Source: Promethearchaeota archaeon
GTDB taxonomy: Archaea > Asgardarchaeota > Lokiarchaeia > Sigyniarchaeales > SOKP01
Reading direction: 5' to 3'
Length of the DNA: 64,000 nt
NCBI GenBank assembly: GCA_016839745.1
Contig: JAEOTS010000025.1
Span: 14,413-78,412 of the forward strand
Part shown: one piece after another, positions 23,101-63,966 of the stretch
Numbering within the stretch: position 1 is the first letter of the stretch
Layout: the number at the start of each line of letters is the position of its first letter
Position numbers and translations under genes: made by a program
Notes under the pieces: model-generated
Seen by the model: only the letters and a program-made list of their open reading frames with translations
Told to the model about the DNA's origin: nothing
Database searches by the model: none

Positions 23101-26100
23101 TATCTTGACTTCCTGCGGTACCAGGTATTAAATATGGACTATCTCCTATTCCATCATCATTTGCATCTACTCCTCCATAATCATCCCAATAATTACCAAT
23201 AGTTCCATTATCCCAATCATTATTCGTTCCATTATCGAGTGCGTTGATACCATTTCCTATAATTAAATTATTAAAAATTAAAGAATAATTAGCTTCTGTT
23301 AAAAAAAATCCATAATTAATAGTATTATTTATGGTGTTTCCCGAAATAACATTATCAATATTTTCGAATAAATATATTCCATAGAGGTCATAGTTATTTA
23401 CTATATTATTCGAGATTATGTTACTACTACTATTAAGAAGTATTCCTATCCCAAAACCAGTTGGAAACCAGTTGGAATTAATGGTGTTTCCTGTAATACT
23501 GTTATTATTACTATACAATGAAACTATCCCAAAGTTGTTACTATTTAAGGTGTTTCCTGTAATGTTATTATTATTACACTCGCTTATCCATATACCATAA
23601 TAGTTTCCTGAAATCGAGTTGTTTCCTGAAATTGAGTTATTTACACTCCTTCCCAGGTATATCCCACGAGAATTATTTGAACAATTGTTTCTTGTAGATA
23701 GTGAATTAGTAACATTAACCAATTCAATCCCCGCTCTTGTTGAATTGAATACAGTACAATTTTCAATTCTAAAATATACATCAGAATTTTCAATGTAAAT
23801 ACAACTAACCGAATTGTTTTGAGCATTAATTGCTAAATCTTCTATTACATAAGGATCCGAACTTGTACCCTGTCCAGTACACTTTCCTGCATCTTTAAAA
23901 TATTGCCACTCTTGATTACCCTCTAAATAAATAGTCTGTGGAGCTATTGCACTGTCCTGTGTCACATCATAAAAGCTTAATATCCCCAACGCATTCGATT
24001 GAAATCCAAGAATATGACTTCGATAGGCGTCATAATTATACGGAATACAACCATATGCCCATGGCATATCATCTTCAACTAAAAGTTGTTGGATTCTTTC
24101 GTAAAATACTTTCCTTGCATTTGGATCAGTTTCGAATAATGCTGCTTCCATTAAAAGCTGCACATTGGCCCAAGGATCAAATGGATCTCTACCCGCTCCC
24201 ATTGCTGCTGTATAACCATTATATTGAACTCCATTATATGCGATAGATCTATTAGTGAAATGTGGGTTGATATAATTGCTTGGATCAACATAATCAGGAC
24301 CCCATCCCATCCAAAAGAGTTCCAGCATATTTCTTGTATAGGGAGGAATTTCAACCAATCTATAAAAATAATCCGTCCAGGTCATGCCCTCATCAGTAAC
24401 TTCGATTCCTATTTTATCAAGATTATTTTGCAATAAAGGTAAAATATTTTCGCGAAGGGTGTTACCTATATTATAAGTATAATTGAAAGTGCGGAATGAT
24501 GCGGCAGACCATAGAGCCTCATCCATTCCGGGGTAATTTGCGTCCCATCCTATTCCAAAGCCCATACTTTGCATGATTTCTCTAGCTTGTGTTATGTTGT
24601 ATATTGCAACATCAAAGGACCAATTGGCGTAGGGCATATTTTCAGGTATAGGCGACTTTAATCTTACGGCATTTCCTCCATATAATTCATCAATAATGTA
24701 AGAGTAGTTTATTGCATACGAAATTGCTTTTCGCCATGTATTATTAATAATTTGATTATTCATACCGAGATATTGAACAATCATGCTTTGTCCAGCGTTA
24801 AATAACGTAATATCGGGATCAGCATCAAAAGTTGAAAACATTGAAGTCAATGGATCAACCAGTAAGTCAACTTCACCTGATAACAGTGCGTTATTTCTGT
24901 CTACTGCATCTGGAATAATGGAAAATTTAAGGATGGAAACATTGGCTTTTCCTGCCCAGTAATTCTCAAAAGCGTGAAACTTTACTTCATTATCAGGTAA
25001 ATAATGATCATAAACAAACGGACCTGTCCCTATTAAATCACCTGTAGTGGTATTAATAGCTGCAAATTGAGGTGTAGATATAGGAGATAGAATATATGAA
25101 CCAGGAAAGCACAATAAATTATCAAATACACCATAAGGTTTATTCAACTCGAATCTAATTGTATATTCATCTACAATTACAGTATCGTTAATAATAGGAA
25201 AATACATACTAACATCAGGATCATAATATTGATAAAGTTCAGCCGCATAAGCCATAGTATTATTTATGAAGTATGCTAACCTATCAAAAGAAAATTTTAC
25301 TGCAGTCGCGTTAAATTTAGTTCCATCGTGGAAAATTACATTAGACCTGAGAGAAACAGTGTACCATGTGTCTGTGGAATTGATCATCCATGTACCCATT
25401 GATGTTGCAAGATTTGGTATAACTGGTAAATTAGGATCCGATATTTTATATTTAAATAAACCCTCACACACTTGATATATTACATCAAATGATACTGTAT
25501 CATAAGCAACGTGAGGATCAAGATCAAATGGACCATAAGCAGTACCAAAAACAATTTTAAATATATCATCTCCTTGGTCGATCCCATCATCCCAAATTGG
25601 AAAGTTATCTTGACTTACTGTTGGGCCAGATATTGGATAAGATGTATCCCCCATTCCGTCATCATTTTCATCTACTCCTGGATAATCATCCCAAAAATTA
25701 CCAAGACTTCCATTATCCCATGAATTGCTAATCAAACTTTCAAAAGCATTGATATTATTTGAGATAAATGAATTGTTATAAATTAGAATGCTATTACTAT
25801 TATTTACATTCATTCCATATTGAACATTATTATTTACATTATTACCAGTGATGGTAAAGTTGGTATTAAGATTGAATAGATGTATCCCTACGCCGTTATT
25901 TGAACAATTGTTCCCAATTATTTGTCCATTACTAGCATTTAGCAATTTAATTCCTGCATCTGCAGAATTAAATAATGTACAATTTTCAATTCTAAAATAT
26001 ACCTCAGAATTTTCAATAAAAATACAACTAACAGATTCATTTTGGCCATCGATTACTAAATCTTCGATTACATAAGGATCAGAAATTGTGCCCTCTCCCG

Positions 26101-28018
26101 TGCATTTACTTGCGTTTTTAAAATATTGCCATTCTTGATTACCATCTAAATATATCGTTTGTGGGGCAATCGCACTATTTTGGGTAACACCACGAAAATC
26201 TAAAATTTCCATAGCGTTCGATTGAAATCCAAGAATACGGCTCCGATAGGCATCATAATTGCGCGTGACGAAACAAAATGCCCATGGCATATCTTCTTCT
26301 ACAAGAATTTCTTGAATCCTATTGTAATATGATTCTCTTATATTTTGATTGGTTTCGAATAATGCTGCTTCCATTAAAAGTTGTACATTATCCCATAGAT
26401 TAAACGGATCTCTACCAGATTCTATCGCTGCCCAATAGCCATTATACATACCATTATTCCAACTACTAAGATCAAGTGTTCTATTGGTTAACATACTATT
26501 GATATAATTACTTGGGTCATTATAGTCATGCCCCCAACCCATCCAGAAGAGTTGCAGCATCTTCCAGCCATCCACTCCTAAAATAAACAATCTATCTAGA
26601 TATTCTGACCAGGTCATACCAGCATCAGTAACTTCGATACCAATTTTATCAAGATTATTTTGTAATAAAGGTAAAATATCTTCTCGAAATGAGTTGCCTA
26701 TATTATAGGTATAATTGTAAGTCTCGAATGATGCGGCAGACCATAGAGCCTCATCACTTCCGGGATAAGTTGTATCCCAAGCTACTCCAAAACCCATACT
26801 TTGCATTATTTCTCTTGCTTTAGAAACATTATATGTTGCTACATCAAGCGACCAGTTAGCGAATATTATACTTTCAGGAAGAGGAGACTCTAATCTCAGT
26901 GCGTTTCCTTCACGTAATTCATTAAGAATATAAGAATAGTTAATAGCATAAGAAATTGCGTTTCTAAAAGTAACATTGATATAATAATTACTCATTACAA
27001 GAGGCGAAATTACTGTCCCCTGTCCAGCGTCAATTAACGTAATATCAGGATCAGCATCAAGAGTAGAAAACATTGAGGAATATGGATTAAGTATTAAGTC
27101 GACTTCACCTGATAACAATGCGTTGTTTCTGTCTACTGCATCTGGAATAATGGAAAATTTAAGGATTGTAATATTTGCTTTTCCTGCCCAATAATTCTCA
27201 AAAGCGTGAAATTTTACTTCATCATCGGGTATATAATGGTCATAAACAAACGGCCCTGTACCGACTAGAGTTCCAGTAGTGATATTAATATACTCAAATT
27301 GAGGTGTAGATGTGGGAGATAAAATATATGATCCAGGAAAGCATAATAATGCCTCGAATGGTCCATATGGCTTATTCAACTCGAATCTAATTGTATATTC
27401 ATCGATAATAACAGTGTCACTAATAATAGGGAAAGTAGTTCCGAGATCAGGATCAAAATATTCATAAAGTGTAGCTGCGGTAGCCATAGAATTATTTATA
27501 AAATATTTTAACCTTTCAAAAGTAAATTTTACTGCTGTTGCGTTAAATTTAGTTCCATCGTGAAAAATCACATTAGGTCGAAGGGACACGGTATACCATG
27601 TGTCTGTAGAATTAATCATCCATGTACCTTTTGATGTTGCTAAACGGGGTATAATCTGTAAATTTTGATCGGTTAAATTGTATGTGAATAAACCTTCGCA
27701 AACTTGATCTATCACATTATATGAATTAGAATCCCAAGAGTTTTGAGGATCAAGATCATATGGACCAGCCTGAGTACCAAATACTAACTTAAATATATTA
27801 TTATCTTGATTACTAGAGTTGAGATCTTTATCGTAAGAAATTAGTCCCTCTCTAGTTTTAGCATTTATATTTATATTCGAATTTATTATGAAATTTGAAA
27901 AAAATATAATTAAGAGGAAAAATAAAATTAAAACTCGTTTTAATTTCTTATTGAATTTTATTGAATATGATTTACCTTTTATATTCCTATATAGACGAAT
28001 ATTGACTTTGGATTTCAT
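17159..28018 (-). CDS. Giant transmembrane TIR receptor-like protein: signal/TM - SBP5 - NosD beta-helix - SBP5 - NosD - 15 Ig-like repeats - NosD - TM - PCI-like - TIR
   Basis: Two LRxNVIFHDGTKFNATAVKF / GTGPF SBP family-5 signatures; GNYWDDY...D beta-helix caps; WYTLDGG repeats; TM YLIVIIMTVVSIISIAGVSFVVV followed by RKR; IFISYS...VLFCSENS...VKDEW TIR. Confidence 0.9.
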   Translation of the reverse strand: MKSKVNIRLYRNIKGKSYSIKFNKKLKRVLILFFLLIIFFSNFIINSNININAKTREGLISYDKDLNSSNQDNNIFKLVFGTQAGPYDLDPQNSWDSNSYNVIDQVCEGLFTYNLTDQNLQIIPRLATSKGTWMINSTDTWYTVSLRPNVIFHDGTKFNATAVKFTFERLKYFINNSMATAATLYEYFDPDLGTTFPIISDTVIIDEYTIRFELNKPYGPFEALLCFPGSYILSPTSTPQFEYINITTGTLVGTGPFVYDHYIPDDEVKFHAFENYWAGKANITILKFSIIPDAVDRNNALLSGEVDLILNPYSSMFSTLDADPDITLIDAGQGTVISPLVMSNYYINVTFRNAISYAINYSYILNELREGNALRLESPLPESIIFANWSLDVATYNVSKAREIMQSMGFGVAWDTTYPGSDEALWSAASFETYNYTYNIGNSFREDILPLLQNNLDKIGIEVTDAGMTWSEYLDRLFILGVDGWKMLQLFWMGWGHDYNDPSNYINSMLTNRTLDLSSWNNGMYNGYWAAIESGRDPFNLWDNVQLLMEAALFETNQNIRESYYNRIQEILVEEDMPWAFCFVTRNYDAYRSRILGFQSNAMEILDFRGVTQNSAIAPQTIYLDGNQEWQYFKNASKCTGEGTISDPYVIEDLVIDGQNESVSCIFIENSEVYFRIENCTLFNSADAGIKLLNASNGQIIGNNCSNNGVGIHLFNLNTNFTITGNNVNNNVQYGMNVNNSNSILIYNNSFISNNINAFESLISNSWDNGSLGNFWDDYPGVDENDDGMGDTSYPISGPTVSQDNFPIWDDGIDQGDDIFKIVFGTAYGPFDLDPHVAYDTVSFDVIYQVCEGLFKYKISDPNLPVIPNLATSMGTWMINSTDTWYTVSLRSNVIFHDGTKFNATAVKFSFDRLAYFINNTMAYAAELYQYYDPDVSMYFPIINDTVIVDEYTIRFELNKPYGVFDNLLCFPGSYILSPISTPQFAAINTTTGDLIGTGPFVYDHYLPDNEVKFHAFENYWAGKANVSILKFSIIPDAVDRNNALLSGEVDLLVDPLTSMFSTFDADPDITLFNAGQSMIVQYLGMNNQIINNTWRKAISYAINYSYIIDELYGGNAVRLKSPIPENMPYANWSFDVAIYNITQAREIMQSMGFGIGWDANYPGMDEALWSAASFRTFNYTYNIGNTLRENILPLLQNNLDKIGIEVTDEGMTWTDYFYRLVEIPPYTRNMLELFWMGWGPDYVDPSNYINPHFTNRSIAYNGVQYNGYTAAMGAGRDPFDPWANVQLLMEAALFETDPNARKVFYERIQQLLVEDDMPWAYGCIPYNYDAYRSHILGFQSNALGILSFYDVTQDSAIAPQTIYLEGNQEWQYFKDAGKCTGQGTSSDPYVIEDLAINAQNNSVSCIYIENSDVYFRIENCTVFNSTRAGIELVNVTNSLSTRNNCSNNSRGIYLGRSVNNSISGNNSISGNYYGIWISECNNNNITGNTLNSNNFGIVSLYSNNNSITGNTINSNWFPTGFGIGILLNSSSNIISNNIVNNYDLYGIYLFENIDNVISGNTINNTINYGFFLTEANYSLIFNNLIIGNGINALDNGTNNDWDNGTIGNYWDDYGGVDANDDGIGDSPYLIPGTAGSQDNFPIWDDGIESVPTVVINAPISNSLFGITSPNFNVEINDTDGVDTMWYTLDGGLTNITFIANGTIDQIEWNKLANGTVLITFYVNGTLGKLASAAVLVRKDIVAPDIIIISPLSNELFGVLTPTYIVEITDINGIDVMWYTLDGGLTNITFITNGTIDQIEWDNQVNGTITVIFYTNDTVGNLASNSVVVRKDVEIPDININSPLLNELFGSLAPSFDVEISDINGIDMMWYTLDGGLTNITFIANGTIDQTEWDNRVNGTVTITFYANDTIGNLAFNSVAVRKDIELPNIIINSPLPNELFGVIAPTFNVEITDINGIDTMWYTLDGGLTNITFITNGTIYQTEWDAQGNGTLTINFYANDTIGNLAFNSVVILKDIELPNIFIISPLPNELFGSLAPTFTVEITDINGIDTMWYTLDGGLTNITFITNGTIDQTEWDAQSNGTVTITFYANDTVGNLASNSVIVRKDIELPDIFINSPLPNELFGSLAPIFSVEISDINGIDTMWYTLDGGLTNITFITNGTIDQTEWDNRVNGTVTINFYANDTIGNLASNSVIVRKDIELPDIIINSPLPNELFGVIAPTFNVEITDINGIDTMWYTLDGGLINITFIANGNIDQIEWDAQGNGTITITFYGNDTLGNLAFNSVVVRKDIEAPNIFIISPLPNELFGSLAPTFTVEIADINGIDTMWYTLNGGLTNITFITNGTIDQTEWDAQSNGTVTITFYANDTIGNFDSSSVVVRKDIEVPNINIISPLPNELFGSLAPSFTVEITDINGIGAMWYTLDGGITNVTFITNGTIDQTEWDAQSNGTLTIIFYANDTVGNLASSSVVVRKDIELPNIIINFPLPNELFGALAPNFTVEISDINGIDTMWYTLDGGLTNITFIANGTIDQTEWDAQGNGTVTITFYGNDTLGNLASNSLVVRKDILSGPTILINTPASNNLFGYTSPNYNVEITAINIVDTMWYTLDGGITNITFITNGTIDQTEWDALSNGTVTIIFYANDTLGNIASNSVVVRKDIEIPNITINSPIPNELFGPLPPTFNVEISDINGVDMMWYTLDGGFINITFTINGTIDPIEWDNQANGTVTITFYANDTVGNLASNSVVVRKDIQLPNIFIISPILNELFGILAPNFNVIITAINGIDTMWYTLDGGLTNIIFITNGSIDQTEWDAQVNGTVTITFYGNDTLGNLASNSIVVRKDILSGPTILINTPITNSLFRYNPPIFNVEISNVNGIDSMWYTLDGGLTNITFIANGTIDQAEWDALGNGTVIIRFYANNTLGTLSFMDIMVGKDIEIPVITIHNPILDETFQLSSPEFNLSITEGNLDLTWYSLSNDTYITGNYTFSDLTGKIDQGLWDNFITGPIETIFIHFYAADLVGNIGYQNVSIKKVPDYVVLETTTIDDTGAGNYTWDQAEAQEWCFGSGTWNDPYIIEFLVIDGQNTGSNLIIRNSIAFFIVRYSILHNSGGGFNDAGLKLEHVSNAILINLDCSNNNGHGVCLYDCENITILESNMNHNKLAGIFLNESRLISIINNTETISYNRWGIYLLLSHSNIISGSFLGSNQFGLFFKQSNNNSITENYFYLNDEAYVEEDSFGNTFQGNTVITKPDYLIVIIMTVVSIISIAGVSFVVVRKRVIIPKKGREIKVYDKKKIKIEQKLHNRLLTVDHLIEEKSVKDALKDLEEIKDLCKVYGLFEMLNECDEKITQCNSKHLEMINIIKRIVLNLATKFARLEITDISEQTGISDDDFIIEVLQEMIQNNEINGEYFSKSKAVAFDKQSNIEQIKQFIKIYREWEMLNLDRDDSDLLLEEVRSQEIKPKAIVSKLLPEKFKELNIFISYSTLDIDHFQILSVIKSLEEYPEIDKVMYWESDKAQKVADYTEFMDETLKEYDVFVLFCSENSMKSASVKDEWQVAFEKRKKDLITIIPVYEKLDDIPTILGHFLNVKYDKKQFNIFIKNLYQEIMRSRGNKFFK
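18915..23065 (-). repeat. Intragenic tandem array of about 276-bp (92-aa) Ig-like repeats: 14 close copies plus 1 divergent
   Basis: 14 MWYTL(D/N)GG units and one LTWYSLSND unit; antisense ORFs recur every 276 nt. Confidence 0.93.
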
Positions 28019-52969: not shown

Positions 52970-54112
52970 TTATAGTTGGCTTATGTTAGAGTGTGGAAAT
53001 TCAGTTCCATGTATTGCTGCTTGAACATATGGCGAGATTGGCCCTCGACCTAACGCCATTATCCTTATTTTAGATCCTAAAGTTGGATTTAATGAAGTTC
53101 CAAATTTAAGGGAAGCATCCTCCGGAATTTCACTTGAAATTGTTGAGATAATACTATCAATTTTACTTAACGCTAATTGATGATCTCCTGAAACCGAAAC
53201 AATACATTTATCAACCTTTTTAGTGTCTGGCTCTAAGAGAGGATTATGTAATGCTAGTTTTGCCTTTTTTATTAGATCAGCTTCTTCTCCCAAAGACTCG
53301 GTAATACCGATTAATCCGGAAGGATAAGCTCCTTTTTTCTCAAGGACTTTTTTTACATCAGCGTAATCGATGTTAATCAAACCGCAATTATTTATTAAAT
53401 TGATTATTTCTTTAATGGATCGAATTAATACTTCATCCATTATTTTAAAACCAGCTAGAATTGGTAATTTTTGATTAAAGCGTAGAAGATTATTGTTTGG
53501 AATTGGTATTAAAGTATCAGAATATTTCATGAGCTCTTCTAAACCTTTCCTGGCTCTTATGCTTCTTTCGATTCCCTCAGATGAAAAAGGAACAGAGCAA
53601 AACGAAACAACAATAGCTTTATTTTTTTTTGCTTCTCTTGCAATTACAGGAGCAGCACCAGTACCAGTACCTCCTCCCAAACCAAATGTTAAAAATACTA
53701 TATCAGCATTTAAAACTTGAGAAAGACGATCGACATCTTCTTCAGCAGCTGCAGTACCAACACTAGGATCGTTGCCTGACCCTAAACCGTTGCAAGTTTC
53801 CTTTCCAATTAGTACTTTTTGATTCGAATTTGAGTAATATAAATCGTGAGCATCCGTATTTATATTTAAAGTTTCAACCAATTCCGAATCGATATCTTGC
53901 ATTCTTGATACGGTATTATTACCTGCTCCACCCACTCCGATCACCAAAGATTTAATTTTTAAGACTTTAAGCAAATCAGAGAGGTATGTATCGTTATCTA
54001 AATTTGAAGACTTGTTAGAATTTATATTATGTTGGGTAATTTCTTTAAACCGGGATCTAACTGATACTCTTGAATTTACGATTTCGCTTAGATCAAATTC
54101 ATCATCATCCAT
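52970..54112 (-). CDS. ftsZ: Cell division GTPase FtsZ
   Basis: GVGGAGNN, NTD, GLGGGTGTG, PFSSEG, NIDYAD T7 loop. Confidence 0.95.
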   Translation of the reverse strand: MDDDEFDLSEIVNSRVSVRSRFKEITQHNINSNKSSNLDNDTYLSDLLKVLKIKSLVIGVGGAGNNTVSRMQDIDSELVETLNINTDAHDLYYSNSNQKVLIGKETCNGLGSGNDPSVGTAAAEEDVDRLSQVLNADIVFLTFGLGGGTGTGAAPVIAREAKKNKAIVVSFCSVPFSSEGIERSIRARKGLEELMKYSDTLIPIPNNNLLRFNQKLPILAGFKIMDEVLIRSIKEIINLINNCGLINIDYADVKKVLEKKGAYPSGLIGITESLGEEADLIKKAKLALHNPLLEPDTKKVDKCIVSVSGDHQLALSKIDSIISTISSEIPEDASLKFGTSLNPTLGSKIRIMALGRGPISPYVQAAIHGTEFPHSNISQL

Positions 54113-54325
54113 AAAAAGTTACCATAATGAGGAGTAATTAGTTAATAATATGTGTATTATATCCAAATAATATAAGGGAGTAATATGCATGTAATATTGA
54201 AAATCGATAACATCAAGGTAATTTCTAAATTTCTACTTATTTGTGAGAGAAAAAGGATAAATATCGGACAGCATAAATTTAAAAGACTGAAGACTATATT
54301 TTATATGCTTGGGGTTAATTGAAAA

Positions 54326-54565
54326 ATGGAAACTGAATTGAATAATGACGCAACTGAATCTTCATTCATAGATTCAGAAGGGGAGGATGTAATAAAAGTC
54401 AGAGCCATCATCAGTTGTCCTTCTGGAGATTATAAAAAAAAGTTTAAAAACACATTTCCTAGAAAAGACTTGGAGCTTATGGTAGTTGCTTTCAAAATAT
54501 TTGATTTCATGACTTGCTCTAAATGTGGAGAACTTTTAAATCTCAATTTGGAATTTGAAATATAA
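54326..54565 (+). CDS. Small hypothetical protein (CSKC Zn-ribbon-like)
   Basis: 79-aa ORF. Confidence 0.65.
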   Translation: METELNNDATESSFIDSEGEDVIKVRAIISCPSGDYKKKFKNTFPRKDLELMVVAFKIFDFMTCSKCGELLNLNLEFEI

Positions 54566-54637
54566 CTAATTAAGCAAGATTTCACTTATTTTCTGTCACA
54601 AAAATTAGTATTAGCTATACTTCAAGTATTGTAATAT

Positions 54638-55948
54638 CTAAACACTAAGTTGAATCTGTCCGTAAGTCCCGCCCCCACCCGGCGTGTATTCAATTTTGTT
54701 CCCTCTTATTGCTTCTATAACTTTAGCGATTTTTTCGTCGAATTTTTTGATTTCTTCAATAGGAACTTCTATTATAATATCAAACTCTGTTCCTAATTCC
54801 TTTATTATCTTATTATAAGTGTTTAATACGGTTGTGCTTGAGGTGCTTTTAATATTTTTAACAGATCGAATTATGTCAATTAATGGTACGGCATTAATAT
54901 ATAACGGTCTATGGTCAGGGTGTATCGGTTCTGAGGAAGTAGAAATTACTTCAATCCGTTCACTTACACCCAATTTGATTTTAATGTTTTTATTGAATTT
55001 TTGCTTACATGCGGGGCAAGTCACTTTTTCTTTAGCAACATTATCGATATATTCCTTTCTTGCCATGTTAGGGTTGTCTGTTAAAACTATAATAAAATCT
55101 TCTGTGATTGTATACTGATTAAATAGAGAAATCCCTTGTTTTTGTGTTTTTTTAAACATTATTCTTCTTCTACATTTGTGACAAAACATATTAAAATATT
55201 TACCTAACTTTGGATGAAGTCCTACATTTAACTCTACTCTACGTTGATTTTTTCTTTCAATTGCTAAAACTAATTCTTCAAAAGAGGGGCTATCAATCTG
55301 AAGTTTATTAAATTCTCTTCCTAGGGATCGAGGATTTTCAGAATGTGCATCACTATTGCTAAGAAAAGTAATTTCTTTAAGGCAATCTAATCTATCAGCT
55401 AAATCAGTATTAGCAGATAGACCTAACTCTAAAAATTTAACTTTTTTTACGGCATCCTGATAACAATCTTCAAGAGTTTCATATTTATTGTGACGAAATA
55501 TTGCCTTGAATGGAGTAAAGGCGTGTGCGGGTCCAATAATTGCTCCATAATCAGTTATAACATCAACCAGTTCAGCAGGAGATAAGTTCACTCTTGGGCG
55601 CCCCCCCCACTCGTCTAACATATTTTTTGAATAGGGTTTAATCTTTTTTTGAACTTCCTTGACTGTAGAAAAATCAGGAAAAAATACTACTTCGTGAACG
55701 CTCTCTTGATCTTCAATTTCAGTCTGTAAAATAAAGTAAACATCTTTGTAACAGAAAGCTCCGTCCCTATCTTTTTTCAAGTTCATTTCTAAATAATTTA
55801 ACCAATCTGGTTGCAACACATCTCCGGTTCCAAGGATATGAAGCCCTTTTTTCTTGCTCGTCTCAACTATACTATCTAGATTTAACTTTTGAGATACTGC
55901 TATGGAATGAGGCGAGTGAATATGTAGATCAGAATTAAATGTATCCAT
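54638..55948 (-). CDS. Endonuclease Q / TIGR00375-type PHP-domain protein
   Basis: DLHIHS, GTGD, PAHAFTP, ELGLSA, SNSDAHS, GREFN, PGGGGTYG. Confidence 0.9.
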   Translation of the reverse strand: MDTFNSDLHIHSPHSIAVSQKLNLDSIVETSKKKGLHILGTGDVLQPDWLNYLEMNLKKDRDGAFCYKDVYFILQTEIEDQESVHEVVFFPDFSTVKEVQKKIKPYSKNMLDEWGGRPRVNLSPAELVDVITDYGAIIGPAHAFTPFKAIFRHNKYETLEDCYQDAVKKVKFLELGLSANTDLADRLDCLKEITFLSNSDAHSENPRSLGREFNKLQIDSPSFEELVLAIERKNQRRVELNVGLHPKLGKYFNMFCHKCRRRIMFKKTQKQGISLFNQYTITEDFIIVLTDNPNMARKEYIDNVAKEKVTCPACKQKFNKNIKIKLGVSERIEVISTSSEPIHPDHRPLYINAVPLIDIIRSVKNIKSTSSTTVLNTYNKIIKELGTEFDIIIEVPIEEIKKFDEKIAKVIEAIRGNKIEYTPGGGGTYGQIQLSV

Positions 55949-55972
55949 TAATTAATCTTAAACTACAATCCA

Positions 55973-57046
55973 TTAAATATCATTTGCTTTTAATCTAGAT
56001 CCTAATTCAATCCATTCTTTAGCTTTCTCAGAATTTCCCAATTTCTCGTGACAACGAACCACTGACTCCCAAAAATCCACTTCCGATGGATCAAGAGAGA
56101 CAACCTTATCAAAATGTATTAAAGCCTCTTTGTAATTATCTTTTACATTGCAAAAAATACTACCTAATTTCTTAAGAGCATTGATGTTATCTGGATCCAT
56201 TTTGAGAGTGTTTTGGAAATAAAAGATTGCGTTATCGAAATCGTTTAACGCGCTATAACTGAATGCTAAATTTTCGTATAGCACTGCATCTTCTTCTTGA
56301 AGATTTAAAGCTTCCTCATAACATTTTATCGATTCTTTAAAATCTTCTTTAAAAGTATAGGATAACCCTAAGTTATTCCACGCTTCAATAAAGGAAGGAT
56401 TCAGTTCAGTTGCCTTCCTATAGCATTTAATTGCCAATTCGTAATCGTTTTTCTCATAAGCAACATCACCTAGGTCAAACCATAATTCAGCGTTATTAGG
56501 ATTGAGATCAATTGCTTTTTTATAGTATTTTATTGCTTCATCGTAATTCTGGTTATCGTAGTATATTATGGCTAGATTGTTGTAAAGAAGTTGTTCATCT
56601 GGATTAATTTTTAGCGCTTTTTTGTAGCACCTTATTGCTTCATCGTACTGTTCTTTTTCTCTATAGATTAACGCTATATTATTCCAAACATCCGTGTAGC
56701 TTGGTTCGTATTCTAACGCGATTTTGTAATACTTTAATGCGTTATCGTGATCTTCTAAGTCTTCATAAGCAAATCCCATGTTATAGTAGGCGATTGCGTC
56801 GTCTGGTTCTATTTCGATTGCTTTCTGATAGCAATTTATTGCTTCTTTAAATTGGCGCAACATACTATACGAAAGTCCAAGATTATTCCATACTTCCGGA
56901 AAATAAGGATTGATTTCTATAGCCTTTTGATACGCTTCTATTGCAGCTTCATATTCATTTTCGTCGTAATACGCATCCGCTAAATTAATCCACGCATCAG
57001 CGTCATTAGGATCCAATTCTGCTGACTTTTTATATCTCTCTATCAT
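55973..57046 (-). CDS. TPR repeat protein (about 10 TPRs)
   Basis: Recurring WNNLG...YDEAIxCYxKAIxINP units of 34 aa. Confidence 0.95.
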   Translation of the reverse strand: MIERYKKSAELDPNDADAWINLADAYYDENEYEAAIEAYQKAIEINPYFPEVWNNLGLSYSMLRQFKEAINCYQKAIEIEPDDAIAYYNMGFAYEDLEDHDNALKYYKIALEYEPSYTDVWNNIALIYREKEQYDEAIRCYKKALKINPDEQLLYNNLAIIYYDNQNYDEAIKYYKKAIDLNPNNAELWFDLGDVAYEKNDYELAIKCYRKATELNPSFIEAWNNLGLSYTFKEDFKESIKCYEEALNLQEEDAVLYENLAFSYSALNDFDNAIFYFQNTLKMDPDNINALKKLGSIFCNVKDNYKEALIHFDKVVSLDPSEVDFWESVVRCHEKLGNSEKAKEWIELGSRLKANDI

Positions 57047-57123
57047 TTTAAAATCAGATATTACCTATGAAAAAAAAAGTTTTATTACTATTATTTTTTT
57101 TGGATTTTAAAAATATCTATTAA

Positions 57124-58167
57124 TTATGTGTCAATAACTATCATTTTATCGTGCTTTTGGTTCGTCAACAAAATTCTTAGATGTGTTTTACTACTTTTAA
57201 ATTTTACTTCTTCTAACTTTCCTTCAACAAATACAGATTCTCCTTTAGTTGCTTGTTCACAAAACCTTCCCCGAAAAGAACTTATTTCATTTAAATTACT
57301 TAAGTTAATGTTATTACCAATAAATTTGGTTTCTAAAACCTTTAGACAATCAATCTTATAAGAACAAGGTGTAAAAATCGAATTAGTTGAATCGATTATT
57401 TTTGCTTTTACTTTAATCCTTCCTAAGTTCTTATATTTGTAATCGTAGAAAGTTCCATTCCAATCATTAGGACTTTTGATATATCTGATGAAAAAGTCAA
57501 CTCCATGGAATTTTCCTTGATGTAACTTTCTTTTTTCGCTTCTCAAAAAACTCTCGAAGTTGATGCCAGAACCTCCTACCCTCCAATTATAATGAGTTTT
57601 ATATTCGGTTAAGTTATATGCCCTACAATTGTTTGAAGTAAGTAGTAATGTTTTTAATTTATCTTGAAATTCTAAACTAGCACGAGTTCCATATATAATT
57701 ACGTCTATATCAGAATCTTCTTTACTTAATCCGATCATGGGGGAACCAGAAATACCAATTGCATCCTCTGGTACTGAAGCGTCTGTAATTAATAATTCGC
57801 ATAAATTTTTGGAATGGTTTTCGATTTCTGACAAATAAATCCTCATTTTTAATGTATCATAGTATTCTCGGGGAGTATAAATTTTCTTTATATCTTTAAT
57901 TTCTACGCCCTGAAGCTCTAAATCAAGTTCGTTTGAAAAAAAAAGATATTGTGGGTAGTCCTCTCTTAATTTCAAATATCTTTCATCCAAGGAATAGATT
58001 TTTTTATAATTTTTGCCTTCCTTTGTTCTTTCTCCATTTTTATCTGGATAAAATCTTAAAAAACAGATTTTTCGGTCTTGGGGATGGTGATAGCCTTTTA
58101 TATCGAAAAAAAGGTGGTCTTCTTTTGTTTCAAGGTAATCCCCTTCAACTCCTTTTGGAATTTTCAT
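57124..58167 (-). CDS. Archaeal predicted nucleotidyltransferase (COG1665-like)
   Basis: F..KGY.HP, GISGS..IGL....SDIDVIIYG, FRGRFCEQA. Confidence 0.82.
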   Translation of the reverse strand: MKIPKGVEGDYLETKEDHLFFDIKGYHHPQDRKICFLRFYPDKNGERTKEGKNYKKIYSLDERYLKLREDYPQYLFFSNELDLELQGVEIKDIKKIYTPREYYDTLKMRIYLSEIENHSKNLCELLITDASVPEDAIGISGSPMIGLSKEDSDIDVIIYGTRASLEFQDKLKTLLLTSNNCRAYNLTEYKTHYNWRVGGSGINFESFLRSEKRKLHQGKFHGVDFFIRYIKSPNDWNGTFYDYKYKNLGRIKVKAKIIDSTNSIFTPCSYKIDCLKVLETKFIGNNINLSNLNEISSFRGRFCEQATKGESVFVEGKLEEVKFKSSKTHLRILLTNQKHDKMIVIDT

Positions 58168-58190: not shown

Positions 58191-59291
58191 TTATCTGGAA
58201 GGCGTTTTTGATTTGATTTTATATTTTGGTATTTCTTTTGCTTTCCTTAATTCTCTTTCAAAATCTCTTTTTTCTCTTAGAAATCTCTCTTTATCACTTT
58301 CTAATCTTTGCCTCTCTTTTCTAATTGAAAATTTATCGTCTTCTATTTTTGATTTCTCCTTTTCCAATTTTTTAATTTCTTCTTTTAAGCTTTTGAGTTT
58401 ATTTTCTGAATTACGAATTTTGTGATCTAATGAATAATATGTATCTTCAGCTTTAGGTACTTTCCTGTTTAATTCTTTTAATCTTACTTCTTGGCCCTTT
58501 TTCTTTTTTTCTAAATCTCTAACATCTTGATCTACATTCTCTTTAAATTTTCCCAATTTCTCCTTTTTCTTTTCAATATCACGAGCCTGAGAGGTTAAAT
58601 CTTTTTTCTTATATCGAACTTTCTCCTTTTCATCTTTTAGTCTTCTTTTCTCATCTTCAATTCGATTCTTTTCGTTTAGTATATCTCTTCTCAGACTATT
58701 AATTTCTTTGTTCAAATTATCTCTTTCTCTCGTTAAACTCTTAATTTCGTTTCTTAAATCCATTAGATTGTTTTCCAACTTTTCAATTGTCCTCTCTAAC
58801 GCACTTTCTCTCCGTTCCATCCCGGGCAATTTGGTTTTAATTTCTTTTATTCTTTCTTTAGCATTTTCTTTTTCACTTGCTATATATTTCTTCTCACTTT
58901 CTAATTCGTCTCTTAATCCGTCTAATCTCTCTTGATATCGCTCTAAGTCAGCATTTTTTTGATCTAACTCCCTTTCTTTGGTATAGAGATTATTTTTACT
59001 TTCTTTTATTTCGTTTCTCATATTATCCAATTCTTTTTTTAGTTGTTCGCGTTGATTTTGAAGATCTCTGACTTGAAGTTCTTTTTCTTTTCTTTTTTTT
59101 TCTAAATCTTGAATATTGTCTTGATACCCTTTAACTCTATTGATAACATTGTCCCATTCAATTTTCTCTTTATTTAGCTTAATTCTTTCTTCTTTAATTT
59201 TTTTGAGTAATTTCGCATCAGGAATGTCGTCTAGTTGCTCTTCGGGTGTTTTTTCTCGAATTTTATGCTTGGGAATAGGTTTTTCCTTCAT
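58191..59291 (-). CDS. Long coiled-coil protein with IPK(H/Y)KI(R/K)xKTP motifs at both termini
   Basis: About 330 aa K/E/R-rich heptads; divergent from UBL 59471. Confidence 0.85.
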   Translation of the reverse strand: MKEKPIPKHKIREKTPEEQLDDIPDAKLLKKIKEERIKLNKEKIEWDNVINRVKGYQDNIQDLEKKRKEKELQVRDLQNQREQLKKELDNMRNEIKESKNNLYTKERELDQKNADLERYQERLDGLRDELESEKKYIASEKENAKERIKEIKTKLPGMERRESALERTIEKLENNLMDLRNEIKSLTRERDNLNKEINSLRRDILNEKNRIEDEKRRLKDEKEKVRYKKKDLTSQARDIEKKKEKLGKFKENVDQDVRDLEKKKKGQEVRLKELNRKVPKAEDTYYSLDHKIRNSENKLKSLKEEIKKLEKEKSKIEDDKFSIRKERQRLESDKERFLREKRDFERELRKAKEIPKYKIKSKTPSR

Positions 59292-59470
59292 GATAATTCT
59301 TAAACTCTTATAAATGATTAATAATATTATATTAATTCGAATTCTAAAGTGTTTGTAATTTCAATTTGAGAATTTATTTGGTTAAGTTAAGTTTATTTAT
59401 ATAACATAATTTCCATTAATTTTTATAAGACATATAAAAATAACAAATCTTAACATATGGTGTTAATTTA

Positions 59471-59872
59471 ATGGATTTTGACGATGAATATGAAGAGGAA
59501 TTTGACGAAGAATTTGACGAGGATTTTGACGAAAGCTTGGATGAAGATATTGAAGAACCATCTTCAAAGTCCCCTACAAAAGATTTAAGAGCTAAGACTC
59601 CAGAACAAAAAATCCCTTCTGAGGGAAAAAAAATATCAGTTTTCTTTCTATCCACTATAGGACCAGGAGAGAAAAAACAAAAATTACTCGTTTTCACGGG
59701 TAATAAAGTTGGAGATATCAAAGACACGGTGGCAAATTTATTTGCATTAGATCCATCTGATTTCCATCTATCTTCAGGAGGAGTTACCATGGAGGAGGAT
59801 TCCTTTTTAAGTGAATATAGTGTAGCTGATGGAGATGATATATTATTAATCCCAGCTAGTGTTGCAGGTTGA
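59471..59872 (+). CDS. Ubiquitin-like protein A (acidic N-tail, ends PASVAG)
   Basis: Beta-grasp pattern V.DIK...F...FHLSSGG..M....L.EY.V.DGDDILLI; C-terminal Gly. Confidence 0.88.
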   Translation: MDFDDEYEEEFDEEFDEDFDESLDEDIEEPSSKSPTKDLRAKTPEQKIPSEGKKISVFFLSTIGPGEKKQKLLVFTGNKVGDIKDTVANLFALDPSDFHLSSGGVTMEEDSFLSEYSVADGDDILLIPASVAG

Positions 59873-59913
59873 ATATTTAGAAAGATATAAAATTAGTAAA
59901 TTTTTTTTTCATT

Positions 59914-60702
59914 TTATTTATTTCTCGATGGAATTAGTGCTATTTCGTCATCATCATCAATATAATAGTCCCTAATTTGCTTAGTTTCGTCTAATAATAT
60001 TCCACCCGTGGAAAGTAGAAAATCTTCTAAACCGTAATCAAACAGAATTCCAACTTGTTCTTTGAATGTACTTATTAAATCGGAGGCTTCAATGATGATT
60101 ATTTTAGTTTTTTCACCCGGTTCGACTAATGATCTTATGTAAACGCGTAATTTGTCATCCATTCCAATTGTGTGTAGTGGAGGGTTGTAATTTATCAGAT
60201 CATCTGTTATGTTTTTATTTTTCAAAATATCTTCAATTAGCTGTTTTCTCTCACCTGTTTCAAAATATAACATTTCTCTGAGAAAAAAGATTTTATCCAT
60301 TTTAGAAAATCCTAACAAATTAATTTTATCTAGTTCTTCCTGATTGAAAAGTGTAAAAATATAATCATCTATTGATTCAATATTTTCAAAAGATTCATCA
60401 GTATGAGCGTATTGATCTACCAATGGCATGGCTTCGAAATAATCTTCAATTAGATCACTTGATATTCCCTTGATTGTTTTTGACTTCTTATAATATTTAT
60501 CTTTTTCTAACCTCTTTGCGGGACTACTTTTATAACTAATAATGGTATAGATCGTGCTAGGGGATAATACAACAATACTCCCAATTGTTAGAAAGAGAAA
60601 TAAAGGTAAACTCTCTATTTGTAATAAGAAAAAAATCAAATAGAGTAAAACGAATACAACATAAAGAGTTATGATACTTAAAACTCTATTACTTTTTTTC
60701 AT
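59914..60702 (-). CDS. Membrane-anchored UBL-domain protein (2 TM; C-terminal UBL without terminal Gly)
   Basis: C-terminal 80 aa align with both UBLs (PGEK, LSTGG, DY..DDDEIALIP); ends SRNK. Confidence 0.82.
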   Translation of the reverse strand: MKKSNRVLSIITLYVVFVLLYLIFFLLQIESLPLFLFLTIGSIVVLSPSTIYTIISYKSSPAKRLEKDKYYKKSKTIKGISSDLIEDYFEAMPLVDQYAHTDESFENIESIDDYIFTLFNQEELDKINLLGFSKMDKIFFLREMLYFETGERKQLIEDILKNKNITDDLINYNPPLHTIGMDDKLRVYIRSLVEPGEKTKIIIIEASDLISTFKEQVGILFDYGLEDFLLSTGGILLDETKQIRDYYIDDDDEIALIPSRNK

Positions 60703-60781
60703 GATTTTTTGATTAAATTATTTCCTAATTTTCTAATATATAATTCAAAATATAAAATCCATTGGAATAAATTTGTAAATT

Positions 60782-61459
60782 TTACGTTTCACCATCAATA
60801 ATTGATTTTGTAATTTTCTCATATTTCTCTAAGTCTAATCTAAACAGATTTCTTTTCTTGTCTTTTTCAATTGTTATTAGGTTTAGATCTTTTAATATTT
60901 CAAGGTATTTCTTAACAGTATTATAGTTTCTTTTTAAATTGGTGGCTATTTCCGTAATTTTAAACGGGTCATTTTCTTCTTTCAAAAGGGTGATGATATC
61001 TCTTACAATGTCTTGCTTTAAATAATAATACAACTTATCTAAATCTGAGTTTGAATCATATTCAAATATTATTCTTTGATTCTCGATTTTTTTTGATCTC
61101 GTAAATCTAAATTTTTCTAAACAAGATAAATGCCATAAAGCTTGATTGCTTCCGATTTTGATTGCTTTCATTATATCATTAACATTTGATGGGTTCTTTC
61201 TAATGTAGTTATAGATTTCATTTCTTATCGGATGCTCAATGATATTATTTTTCATTAATTTGGTTCCAGGGATTAGAACTCTTTTTTTAATGAGATTTTT
61301 AATTATGATTTCAATACTATTTTTATTCAAGTTAGGATTAGCTCTTACCCTATTATTGATGAACACTACAATATCTTCTATTGAAAAGAAGGGTTTCTTC
61401 TTTAGATATTCCTTTATTAGATTACAAACAATAGACTGAAGGTTATCCGGAGTGCTCAT
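60782..61459 (-). CDS. Tandem winged-helix (ArsR-like) transcriptional regulator
   Basis: RNEIYNYIRKNP...WHLSCLEK; ITEIATNLKRNYNTVKKYLEIL. Confidence 0.85.
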   Translation of the reverse strand: MSTPDNLQSIVCNLIKEYLKKKPFFSIEDIVVFINNRVRANPNLNKNSIEIIIKNLIKKRVLIPGTKLMKNNIIEHPIRNEIYNYIRKNPSNVNDIMKAIKIGSNQALWHLSCLEKFRFTRSKKIENQRIIFEYDSNSDLDKLYYYLKQDIVRDIITLLKEENDPFKITEIATNLKRNYNTVKKYLEILKDLNLITIEKDKKRNLFRLDLEKYEKITKSIIDGET

Positions 61460-61726
61460 AAGCTCTTAATTTTGATGTGTTGAATTATCAGATTTTTATA
61501 ATCAAATCTTCTCTCTATAACGACATTTTCAAATTTATATATATTAATAGACATTCATTTAATTTATAAATATATTAAATTATGTTTTTTATAATAGATG
61601 CTTGCATTTCAGAAAAAACTCACAAATCTTCAAAATCATTCCAATGGGTTTTTTAATATCATTTTAACGTGTAATTATTAGTCTTAAAAAAAAACTTAAA
61701 TAAAAAAAATAAAGGAAGTGATATGA

Positions 61727-62053
61727 ATGAGTTTTGAAGAAGATTTTAATGAGGAATTAGAACCAGTTAAATCTAAAACCCCATCAAGTAAAACACCCTC
61801 AACAGGCAAAAAGTTGACTTTATATTTTATGTCAACTATTGGTCCTGGTGAAAAGAAGGAAAAGTTGACTGTCAATGATGCAAATCATGTAAGCGATATC
61901 AAACAAACCTTAGGAAATCTATTCGGGCTTGATCCAGACGAATTTCATCTTTCATCTGGAGGAGTTACAATGGACGAGAATAGTCAATTAAAAGACTATA
62001 ATGTTAACGATGGAGACGACATTTTATTAATTCCTGCTAGTACTGCTGGATAA
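61727..62053 (+). CDS. Ubiquitin-like protein B (ends PASTAG)
   Basis: Close paralogue of UBL A; directly upstream of E1 and E2. Confidence 0.9.
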   Translation: MSFEEDFNEELEPVKSKTPSSKTPSTGKKLTLYFMSTIGPGEKKEKLTVNDANHVSDIKQTLGNLFGLDPDEFHLSSGGVTMDENSQLKDYNVNDGDDILLIPASTAG

Positions 62054-62125: not shown

Positions 62126-62147
62126 ATTAAAATTAACGGTGATAATA

Positions 62148-63371
62148 TTGGGTAAGGATTCAGATTTTTTTGCAAAGGGATTATCAGAAGAAGAGAGAGA
62201 CTTATACGATCGTCAATTTCGTTTAGAAGGATGGTCCCAAAAATTAGTAAAGAAGTCGAGAGTATTAATTGCTGGCGTAGGAGGTTTAGGATGTGAAATT
62301 GCTAAGAATTTAGCAATGTTAGGTGTAGGTCATATAGATCTTGTCGATTTGGATACTATTGAACATTCGAATTTAAATCGCCAAATTCTATTTGTAGGAG
62401 CCAGGTTAGGAGAACCGAAAGCAATTGCTGCTGCAAAAAAATTAGTTGAGATTAATCCTAATATTATCGTTAAAGGATATCACTCATCGTTAGAAAGATT
62501 AGATCCCGCATTATATTATAATGCAGATGTTGTTATTGGAGGTCTTGATTCAATGAACGCAAGATTAAATTTAAACGCTCAATGCATTAGATTTAGAAAG
62601 CCTTTAGTAGATGGAGGGGTTTCTGGTTATTACGGTCACATATATTCAATATTTCCATATCGAAATGCATGTTATGAATGTAACCCATTACCAGATCCAA
62701 AAAACGACGAAATGGCAGCTTGCACTGTGGTTGGTATTCCTAGAAAAAGAATTCATTGTGTTTTTAAAGGAGATATGGCCTTTAAAGATAAATTTGACAG
62801 AGACCCAAATCCTAAAAATGTAGAAGATATTAGATTTATTCAAAAAGTTGCAAATGAACTTGTTACCAAACATGACTTCTTACCTGAATATACTGAAGAT
62901 GATATTGTGAAAATTATTGATCGCCACGATCCTGGGATCATTACAATTAATGCAACTATTTCGGCGTTGCAATCTCATGAAGCGGTTAAAATTCTTCATT
63001 GGAAAAAAGGTCATAAAGGATTGGGTGAGCCCATTACAAGTTACGCAATATTTAATGCTGTAACAATGAAATTATACCACATTGAAAAGAAGAGAAATCC
63101 AGAATGTTCTCAATGTGGTAAAAATGTAAGAAGAGTCGTCATTAAAATGAGGGACAGCTCGCCTTGCATGAATATTATTAAAACGCTAGAAAAAAATGGA
63201 TACAAGTTAGAATCTGAATTTGAACCAGTACTTACTTTATTGGATTTTAATGATATAATAGTTCTTGATTTAGAGCAAAGTCCAATTCAAAATGATTTGA
63301 GGAATTACGAATTTCTCACGGTTGCGGGGTTTGAAGGAGGAGAAGTTTACGTAACCTTAAAATTTAAATAA
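62148..63371 (+). CDS. Ubiquitin-like activating enzyme E1 (ThiF domain, UBA2/UBA3-like catalytic Cys)
   Basis: YDRQ, GVGGLGCE, D.D.IE.SNLNRQ, CYEC, AACTVVGIPR, CSQC; TTG start 5 nt after GGTGA. Confidence 0.92.
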   Translation: MGKDSDFFAKGLSEEERDLYDRQFRLEGWSQKLVKKSRVLIAGVGGLGCEIAKNLAMLGVGHIDLVDLDTIEHSNLNRQILFVGARLGEPKAIAAAKKLVEINPNIIVKGYHSSLERLDPALYYNADVVIGGLDSMNARLNLNAQCIRFRKPLVDGGVSGYYGHIYSIFPYRNACYECNPLPDPKNDEMAACTVVGIPRKRIHCVFKGDMAFKDKFDRDPNPKNVEDIRFIQKVANELVTKHDFLPEYTEDDIVKIIDRHDPGIITINATISALQSHEAVKILHWKKGHKGLGEPITSYAIFNAVTMKLYHIEKKRNPECSQCGKNVRRVVIKMRDSSPCMNIIKTLEKNGYKLESEFEPVLTLLDFNDIIVLDLEQSPIQNDLRNYEFLTVAGFEGGEVYVTLKFK

Positions 63372-63438: not shown

Positions 63439-63966
63439 ATGAGTATAAGAAGTAGTCGAGTTTCCAGAGATTTTGCTGGACTAAAAAAATTGCTAAAGCA
63501 AGGGACAATCGTCCAATTAAAGCCATTTAATCCAAAAAAAAAGAGCATCAATCACCTAGCTCTAACGATTAAAGGTCCAAAAGGTACGGTTTATGCGGGG
63601 GGATTGTTTAAATTAGAAATGAAGTTTCCTGTTCAATATCCTAAACAGCCTCCATTTGTAAGATTACACACTCCAATATGGCACCCAAATTTTTGGCCAA
63701 AACCTAGTGAATATAAAGGACAAAGAAATATTTGTTTAGCACTAGTAGATCCGTCGCTAGTTGGTAAAAAAGGAGGATGGAGCCCTTCAAAAACAGCAGT
63801 TACAGTTGTCCAAGCAATAATTGCCATGTTAAACACTCGAGGAAAGTTTGTTAATCCAACTGATGTGTTTAATAAAAAAGCAGCCGTGGAAATGATGAAA
63901 AATCAGAAATTATTTGAAAAAAAAGTCAAAAATTTAGTAAAGAAGTATGCCAAGGATAAATGGTGA
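63439..63966 (+). CDS. Ubiquitin-conjugating enzyme E2
   Basis: GPKGTVYAGGLF, FP.QYP..PP, WHPN, ICL catalytic Cys, W.P. Confidence 0.93.
   Translation: MSIRSSRVSRDFAGLKKLLKQGTIVQLKPFNPKKKSINHLALTIKGPKGTVYAGGLFKLEMKFPVQYPKQPPFVRLHTPIWHPNFWPKPSEYKGQRNICLALVDPSLVGKKGGWSPSKTAVTVVQAIIAMLNTRGKFVNPTDVFNKKAAVEMMKNQKLFEKKVKNLVKKYAKDKW

Follow-up and report, generated by a model that had tools for sequence, protein, structure and literature searches.

What marks a lysine as the target of an archaeal ubiquitin-like protein? We examined a window of 64,000 nucleotides (JAEOTS010000025.1, positions 14,413 to 78,412; assembly GCA_016839745.1) from a Promethearchaeota (Loki) genome, in which it forms the end of contig C144. 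It encodes two ubiquitin-like proteins (UBL A and UBL B), an E1, an E2 and a basic coiled-coil protein, and the UBL tails share a short motif with the coiled coil. By sequence comparison this motif is real, conserved, under selection and lysine-specific. We think it probable that, in the form (psi/P)-x-x-K-x-P, where psi is a hydrophobic residue, it constitutes the acceptor-lysine consensus of a conjugation pathway whose UBLs end in Ala-Gly, and that it serves chain formation by the UBLs as well as the modification of a dedicated multi-site substrate.

A preliminary description of the window had defined the motif as psi-[KR]-x-K-T-P, and the four hexamers that it listed all translate as claimed. 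On the minus strand, the two ends of the coiled-coil protein encode IREKTP (59244–59261) and IKSKTP (58200–58217). On the plus strand, LRAKTP (59585–59602) lies in UBL A and VKSKTP (61766–61783) in UBL B, where it is followed at 61784 by SSKTP. The full motif had also been said to be missing from the other proteins of the window, and indeed no other open reading frame (ORF) of the contig has the strict form. Proteome-wide enrichment had been proposed at the same time as a check. The 3,143 ORFs of the genome (1.03 M residues) contain 11 strict matches against 5.85 expected from shuffles; four of the 11 are concentrated in the three neighbouring genes for the coiled coil, UBL A and UBL B, which together encode 607 residues. 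Of an extended, 11-residue form the proteome has just two instances, one at each end of the coiled coil. Since the definition of the motif was post hoc, its conservation is the real test.

The orthologues passed this test. K-x-P is present in 173 of 174 UBL tails, 79 of 80 coiled-coil N-termini and 78 of 80 C-termini. The exceptions are explained by truncation of an ORF in one case and of a contig in another, and by a single P-to-T change; the sequences compared are related, and these counts overstate their independence. On trees of 81 and 176 sequences, the lysine and the proline change 0–2 times. This conservation rules out chance as the source of the motif. A DNA-level repeat is likewise ruled out: both Lys codons are used and synonymous codons vary across the motif copies, so that selection acts on the protein. 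As had been proposed, the motif is common to the UBL tails and the syntenic coiled-coil partner; the E1 and E2 encoded in the cluster are intact. The strict consensus, on the other hand, is too narrow, for only 96 of the 174 UBL tails conform to it, and we reject it. A hydrophobic residue stands at position −3 of the motif lysine, S, T, E or Q at −1 and Pro at +2. Two residues upstream of the lysine, K and R exchange freely (12–17 changes), and Thr changes 7–10 times on trees where K changes 0–2 times. Judged from these alignments, the working consensus is (psi/P)-x-x-K-x-P, in which only K and P are near-invariant.

The motif was looked for and found absent in the E1, the E2, the JAB protease, the RING protein, a non-conjugatable membrane UBL and a winged-helix regulator; among the cluster proteins compared it is confined to the UBLs and their partners. 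When a position-specific scoring matrix was run over the organism's own proteome, the three locus proteins ranked first, third and fourth, a circular result. No convincing further multi-site substrate emerged from that scan, the rest being single sites or Lys/Pro-rich tails. The top non-locus scores belonged to a 990-residue protein with five consecutive Lys/Pro repeats at its C-terminus (G000:C134:6739-9711) and a 994-residue protein with two N-terminal sites (G000:C57:964-3948).

How is the motif placed in the UBLs? UBL A (59471–59872, plus strand; 133 residues; net charge −23) has a long acidic tail with three K-x-P sites, K33, K42 and K47 (59558–59617, plus strand), of which K33 and K47 had been overlooked. 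UBL B (61727–62053, plus strand; 108 residues; net charge −9), the first gene of a UBL–E1–E2 run, bears tandem K-T-P sites at K17 and K22 (61766–61798, plus strand). K17 is found in 172 of 174 tails and P19 in all 174. By parsimony K17 changes twice, both changes looking like alignment shifts, and P19 not at all, against 10–52 changes at neighbouring positions. Two copies of K-x-P occur in 135 tails. In the AlphaFold model of UBL B the ubiquitin fold begins at residue 29 and the motif tail has a predicted local distance difference test (pLDDT) score below 50 (residues 13–24); UBL B thus has an N-terminal tail that is predicted to be disordered and carries a conserved consensus lysine. Both UBLs end in Ala-Gly, as do all 175 UBLs compared (A107-G108 in UBL B); none of them ends in Gly-Gly. 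The best Pfam match is ubiquitin, ahead of Rad60-SLD, the best structural match of UBL B (Foldseek) is the ubiquitin of Caldiarchaeum subterraneum, and SUMO is absent among the 60 best PDB sequence matches.

Several genomes hold intact orphan copies of UBL B outside the operon with the tail motif retained (G000:C18:1-199; L222-L224, L226-L228). The UBL also forms the C-terminal part of fusions with CDC48_N/VWA, Roadblock, Zn-finger-like and P-loop ATPase-like proteins (L065:9691-11448, L070:7583-8506, L068:8557-9237, L187:12703-14658, L199:13770-14660, L197:1910-3718, L209:11072-12814). The Ala-Gly end is mostly kept in these fusions, several of which retain K-x-P sites right before the fold.

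The coiled-coil protein (58191–59291, minus strand; 366 residues; net charge +24) is encoded divergently from UBL A. It had been proposed to be modified at both ends; candidate sites do lie at both ends, but there are four of them, not two. The N-terminal extended motif (residues 6–16; 59244–59276, minus strand) contains K14, conserved in 77 of 80 sequences with two tree changes and never replaced by Arg. The C-terminal one (residues 354–364; 58200–58232, minus strand) contains K362, present in 80 of 80 with no change. Between them lie two sites previously overlooked, both on the minus strand: IKTKLP with K154 (58824–58841), at a proline in the rod, and LNRKVP with K277 (58455–58472), at the second internal proline. 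K362 is the sole fully invariant lysine among the 73 of the rod, for which the median is about 14 parsimony changes. The exclusion of arginine is as marked. Other lysine columns of the rod average 11% Arg, whereas Arg never occurs at the four K-x-P sites; the position two residues before the internal rod prolines is K in 158 of 166 cases and Arg in none; and at the coiled-coil termini 236 K-x-P stand against no R-x-P. In several lineages the motif is amplified in tandem at both rod ends. The element upstream of the motif, noted earlier as IPK, is itself a K-x-P site at 13 N-termini and six C-termini, and IPK may thus be what is left of a second site. Aligned with itself by lag, the rod gave no strong periodicity; its Pfam coiled-coil matches (APG6, ERM, crescentin and others) all miss the cut-off, so that we do not assign it to any of these families, and an ESM Atlas search returned only weak, generic coiled-coil matches, at most 0.82. 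On its conserved sites, the coiled coil is a candidate dedicated substrate.

If the rod matters as a carrier of acceptor lysines, what occurs where there is no rod? The partner in the Heimdall/Hod clusters is a basic, proline-rich, disordered protein of 212–286 residues that lacks coiled-coil character, has a net charge of +32 to +62 and bears 10–16 K-x-P sites. Its gene is divergent from that of the UBL or directly follows the RING genes, and in eight of 20 such partners the end resembles the C-terminus of the Loki rod. The first eight contain 101 K-x-P against 56 expected, with a peak at offset −2. In all 20, psi-[KR]-x-K-x-P occurs 63 times and its Arg form never, and R-x-P is depleted (21 against 40 expected); 12 of the 20 were chosen by K-x-P count, and for these only the Arg comparison is non-circular. 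The motif is thus retained through a complete change of partner architecture. In Hodarchaeales, a protein of 126–131 residues with one I-x-x-K-T-P site is encoded divergently from two UBL genes (L205:10728-11123, L211:9935-10315) and is possibly a further substrate. Heimdall/Hod clusters also add a multi-pass protein of about 190 residues that lacks a RING and has weak similarity to the RING protein in its membrane part (L201:11140-11718, L204:3168-3743, L205:5318-5923).

Across 400 genomes of the phylum, the UBL family was found in 194 and its E2 in 180, with an identical pattern over families; many families gave no UBL, and neither did some near-complete genomes from the organism's own family. 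Members occur in Loki-, Hel-, Sigyn-, Heimdall- and Hodarchaeal genomes (database names), and the cultured Ca. Lokiarchaeum ossiferum has the cluster (NEF87_002992-002996) with an adjacent coiled-coil gene. Among 116 loci with distinct E2s, many of them on incomplete contigs, we counted an E1 at 113, a JAB protease at 110, a UBL at 109, a multi-pass membrane RING protein at 105 and a motif-bearing partner at 93. In relatives the E2 gene is followed by those for the JAB protease and the membrane RING protein. These counts do not support the earlier suggestion that the pathway is independent of an E3, and the missing E3 of the window is no argument for it: no E3 is seen there because the contig ends, 34 nucleotides after the E2 stop codon. 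In the same genome the JAB and membrane RING genes lie on another contig (L221, G000:C104:5500-9150), after a second E2 copy of 89% DNA identity, which is either from a co-binned strain or a duplicate. The RING protein is so called from a weak Prok-RING_1 match and from its 'RING-type' label in UniRef. Seven of its ligands are invariant Cys/His residues, Glu takes the sixth position, and the RING is joined to a multi-pass domain; the protease was recognized by Pfam JAB.

Both E1 (62139–63371, plus strand), a ThiF-domain protein whose catalytic-Cys region can be aligned with UBA1, and E2 (63439–63966, plus strand) have intact catalytic motifs. The E2 has HPN, C99 and, at the CES/D position, D142; its model (pLDDT 92) is a standard UBC fold, and sequences from different classes share at least 55% identity. 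Its best matches are Ubc15, Cdc34, Ubc13 and UbcH5, at about 25–28% identity. Between HPN and the catalytic Cys (residues 82–99; 63682–63735, plus strand) it contains a family-specific insertion of 5–7 residues, and W86, P89, E91 and R96 are invariant in this region. From its position, the insertion loop is a candidate reader of the motif. In Ubc9, Asn85, Tyr87 and Asp127 orient the acceptor lysine (PMC4604453). W86 and D142 of the archaeal E2, with its HPN, align at the positions of Tyr87, Asp127 and Asn85.

How might the pathway operate? Given their catalytic motifs, the E1 would activate the UBL and hand it over to Cys99 of the E2. From the E2 the UBL would be transferred to the motif lysine, the multi-pass RING protein of the cluster probably activating the E2 and keeping it at the membrane, with lysine and proline presumably read in or beside the active site, at the invariant insertion. 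Since the UBL tail usually has two sites, chains may extend and branch through it in the manner of SUMO2/3. The partner gene would provide a dedicated multi-site substrate, with about 4–7 sites in the Loki coiled coil and 10–16 in the disordered basic protein of the Heimdall/Hod clusters. The partner being basic and the UBLs acidic, conjugation would neutralise or cross-link it, and we speculate that this could happen to a scaffold near the membrane. The JAB protease would mature tailed precursors and reverse the modification. In a bolder version the E2 itself reads K-x-P through its invariant active-site insertion and builds branched, tail-linked chains on the scaffold even without the RING; this we put forward tentatively, as something we rather doubt. 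Such an E2 would be a prokaryotic, independently derived counterpart of the consensus-and-tail-chain logic of SUMO, extending to Hodarchaeales and Heimdallarchaeaceae, a parallel to be drawn with equal reserve.

The earlier claim of a conjugation consensus, stripped of E3 independence, fits best with the conservation of K and P, the exclusion of Arg, the disordered tails and the synteny. Several observations weigh on the other side. An invariant lysine would also be expected of a binding pocket or of a different modification of that residue. E2s in general have an aromatic residue where Ubc9 has Tyr87 and an acidic one at CES/D, so that neither is a sign of consensus reading (PMC4604453), and in pairwise comparison this E2 is no nearer to Ubc9 than to other E2s. 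In addition, K8 in the upstream P-K of the rod is well conserved (three changes) although no x-P follows it, which suggests an extended docking surface. Non-covalent docking is indeed the main rival: a pocket on the RING, JAB, E1, E2 or membrane ubiquitin-fold protein would bind K and P, leaving the lysine unmodified. The extended, conserved flank at both partner ends and the multivalent arrays of sites would suit it, as would the proline, since Pro-containing linear motifs are typical docking ligands. However, near-total exclusion of Arg beside free K/R exchange two residues upstream is more typical of amine chemistry, and the motif is located where SUMO2/3 keep their chain lysine. We regard docking as unlikely, though worth taking seriously, and the same holds for the arrangement it would imply, in which UBL tails and multivalent partner compete for, or scaffold, the enzymes.

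Could the motif instead be a structural element, through which rods polymerise head to tail or the UBL core is bound, or do the basic K/P repeats simply attach to nucleic acid in the manner of histone-H1-type tails? The motif at both rod ends and the strongly basic partners (+24; +32 to +62) speak for such a role, but the motif is also present in acidic UBL tails and in partners that have no rod, basic repeats that bind DNA should tolerate Arg, and the tail is not packed on its own core in the UBL B model (weak evidence, from 16 sequences). We consider this improbable. Lysine specificity would also be accounted for by some other lysine-directed enzyme regulating UBL and partner, be it a methylase, an acetylase or the canonical Gly-Gly ubiquitin pathway; the genome does encode a separate, tail-less Gly-Gly ubiquitin (L249:1453-1704, G000:C93) and a second E1/E2 pair (G000:C37:12627-15573). 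As the motif, the UBL and the E2 have a common family distribution and the conserved genes of the cluster yielded no enzyme of this kind, this seems very improbable. There is scarcely any likelihood in the proposal, made in the preliminary description, of proline-directed Thr phosphorylation, as in the K-S-P repeats of neurofilaments. Of the UBL-tail sites, 81% have T or S in the middle position, and most Loki termini have T there. However, T/S falls to 50% in coiled-coil sites and 22% in those of the disordered partners, where Ile, Lys and Val are common; Thr changes far more often than the lysine on the trees; and no kinase was identified among the conserved cluster genes. Ser or Thr before Pro is not obligatory, and we reject obligatory phosphorylation; phospho-Thr as a secondary modulator is possible.

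Does the acceptor-lysine consensus that we favour make this a SUMO system? The tail of SUMO2/3 is the site of its chain lysine. The likeness lies in a ubiquitin-fold modifier with a flexible N-terminal tail, an invariant consensus lysine, the same consensus in candidate substrates, and E2 residues at the Asn85, Tyr87 and Asp127 positions. Ubc9 reads psi-K-x-E in disordered regions (10.64898/2026.09.10.750468), whereas the Asgard consensus is (psi/P)-x-x-K-x-P. The Asgard UBL ends in Ala-Gly and usually has two tail sites, and its cluster has a single ThiF E1 gene, JAB instead of Ulp/SENP and a membrane RING in the operon. With neither psi-K-x-E/D, a Gly-Gly end nor a specific relatedness of UBL or E2 to SUMO and Ubc9, we reject membership of the SUMO family. 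A closer comparison is the operon of C. subterraneum, with Ub, E1, E2, small RING and Rpn11, a Gly-Gly ubiquitin and a small RING required in vitro (PMC5654768); the Asgard ubiquitin–ESCRT clusters also have a Gly-Gly ubiquitin (PMC9192718; bioRxiv 2023.07.25.550441). The same enzyme set stands here in one archaeal cluster: a Gly-ended ubiquitin fold, E1 and E2 catalytic motifs, and co-encoded RING and JAB. In place of the canonical Gly-Gly ubiquitin and small soluble RING, we find a UBL that ends in Ala-Gly and has the motif in an acidic tail, a RING of the multi-pass type whose sixth ligand is Glu, and a motif-bearing partner encoded alongside. In these respects the cluster departs from the archaeal E1/E2/RING/JAB operon (PMC5654768), of which it is a variant, and it coexists with a Gly-Gly ubiquitin in the same genome. 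The E3-free, sequence-dependent ubiquitination of a SETDB1 peptide by UBE2E1 (PMC10858943; PDB 8IYA) is a precedent for a non-SUMO E2 reading a short peptide around the acceptor lysine; there, however, the sequence is another, in one eukaryotic substrate, and is not common to the modifier's own tail.

Two further genes lie between those of UBL A and UBL B. A membrane-anchored, paralogous ubiquitin-fold protein (59914–60702, minus strand), with the fold at its C-terminus and transmembrane segments read from its hydrophobic N-terminus, lacks both a terminal Gly and the motif. It is reminiscent of plant MUB proteins, which bind E2; PDB 4X57 came up among the structure matches. The winged-helix regulator (60782–61459, minus strand), also without the motif, is present in part of the families, and the two genes are kept in 57 of the 116 loci. 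On its other side, the coiled-coil gene adjoins genes for FtsZ-like and metallophosphoesterase-like proteins (both by eye), a TPR protein and a nucleotidyltransferase (52970–58167), neighbours retained in the organism's own genus and not in distant families. The window also contains a 3,619-residue ORF (17159–28018, minus strand).

What would follow for these archaea? A literature search, poor in subscription papers, found no description of the pathway or motif and no conjugation data. In the parts consulted of the papers on C. subterraneum and on the Asgard ubiquitin–ESCRT systems (PMC5654768; PMC9192718; bioRxiv 2023.07.25.550441), as in the archaeal ubiquitylation literature so covered, neither a site consensus nor an operon-encoded multi-site substrate is reported. 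The motif supplies exact residues for mutation and a ready peptide tag, and the claim is testable now, since the cluster is present in cultured Ca. L. ossiferum, for which proteomes are public (PXD074767, PXD068820; PMC13716822). Trypsin would leave a 14-residue remnant on a conjugated lysine there (+1310.67 Da), and a second protease that trimmed it to Ala-Gly would give +128.059 Da, isobaric with Gln. If K-x-P is the acceptor site, the closest relatives of eukaryotes would possess a conjugation consensus of prokaryotic kind, a substrate dedicated to it and a way to tail-linked, possibly branched, chains.

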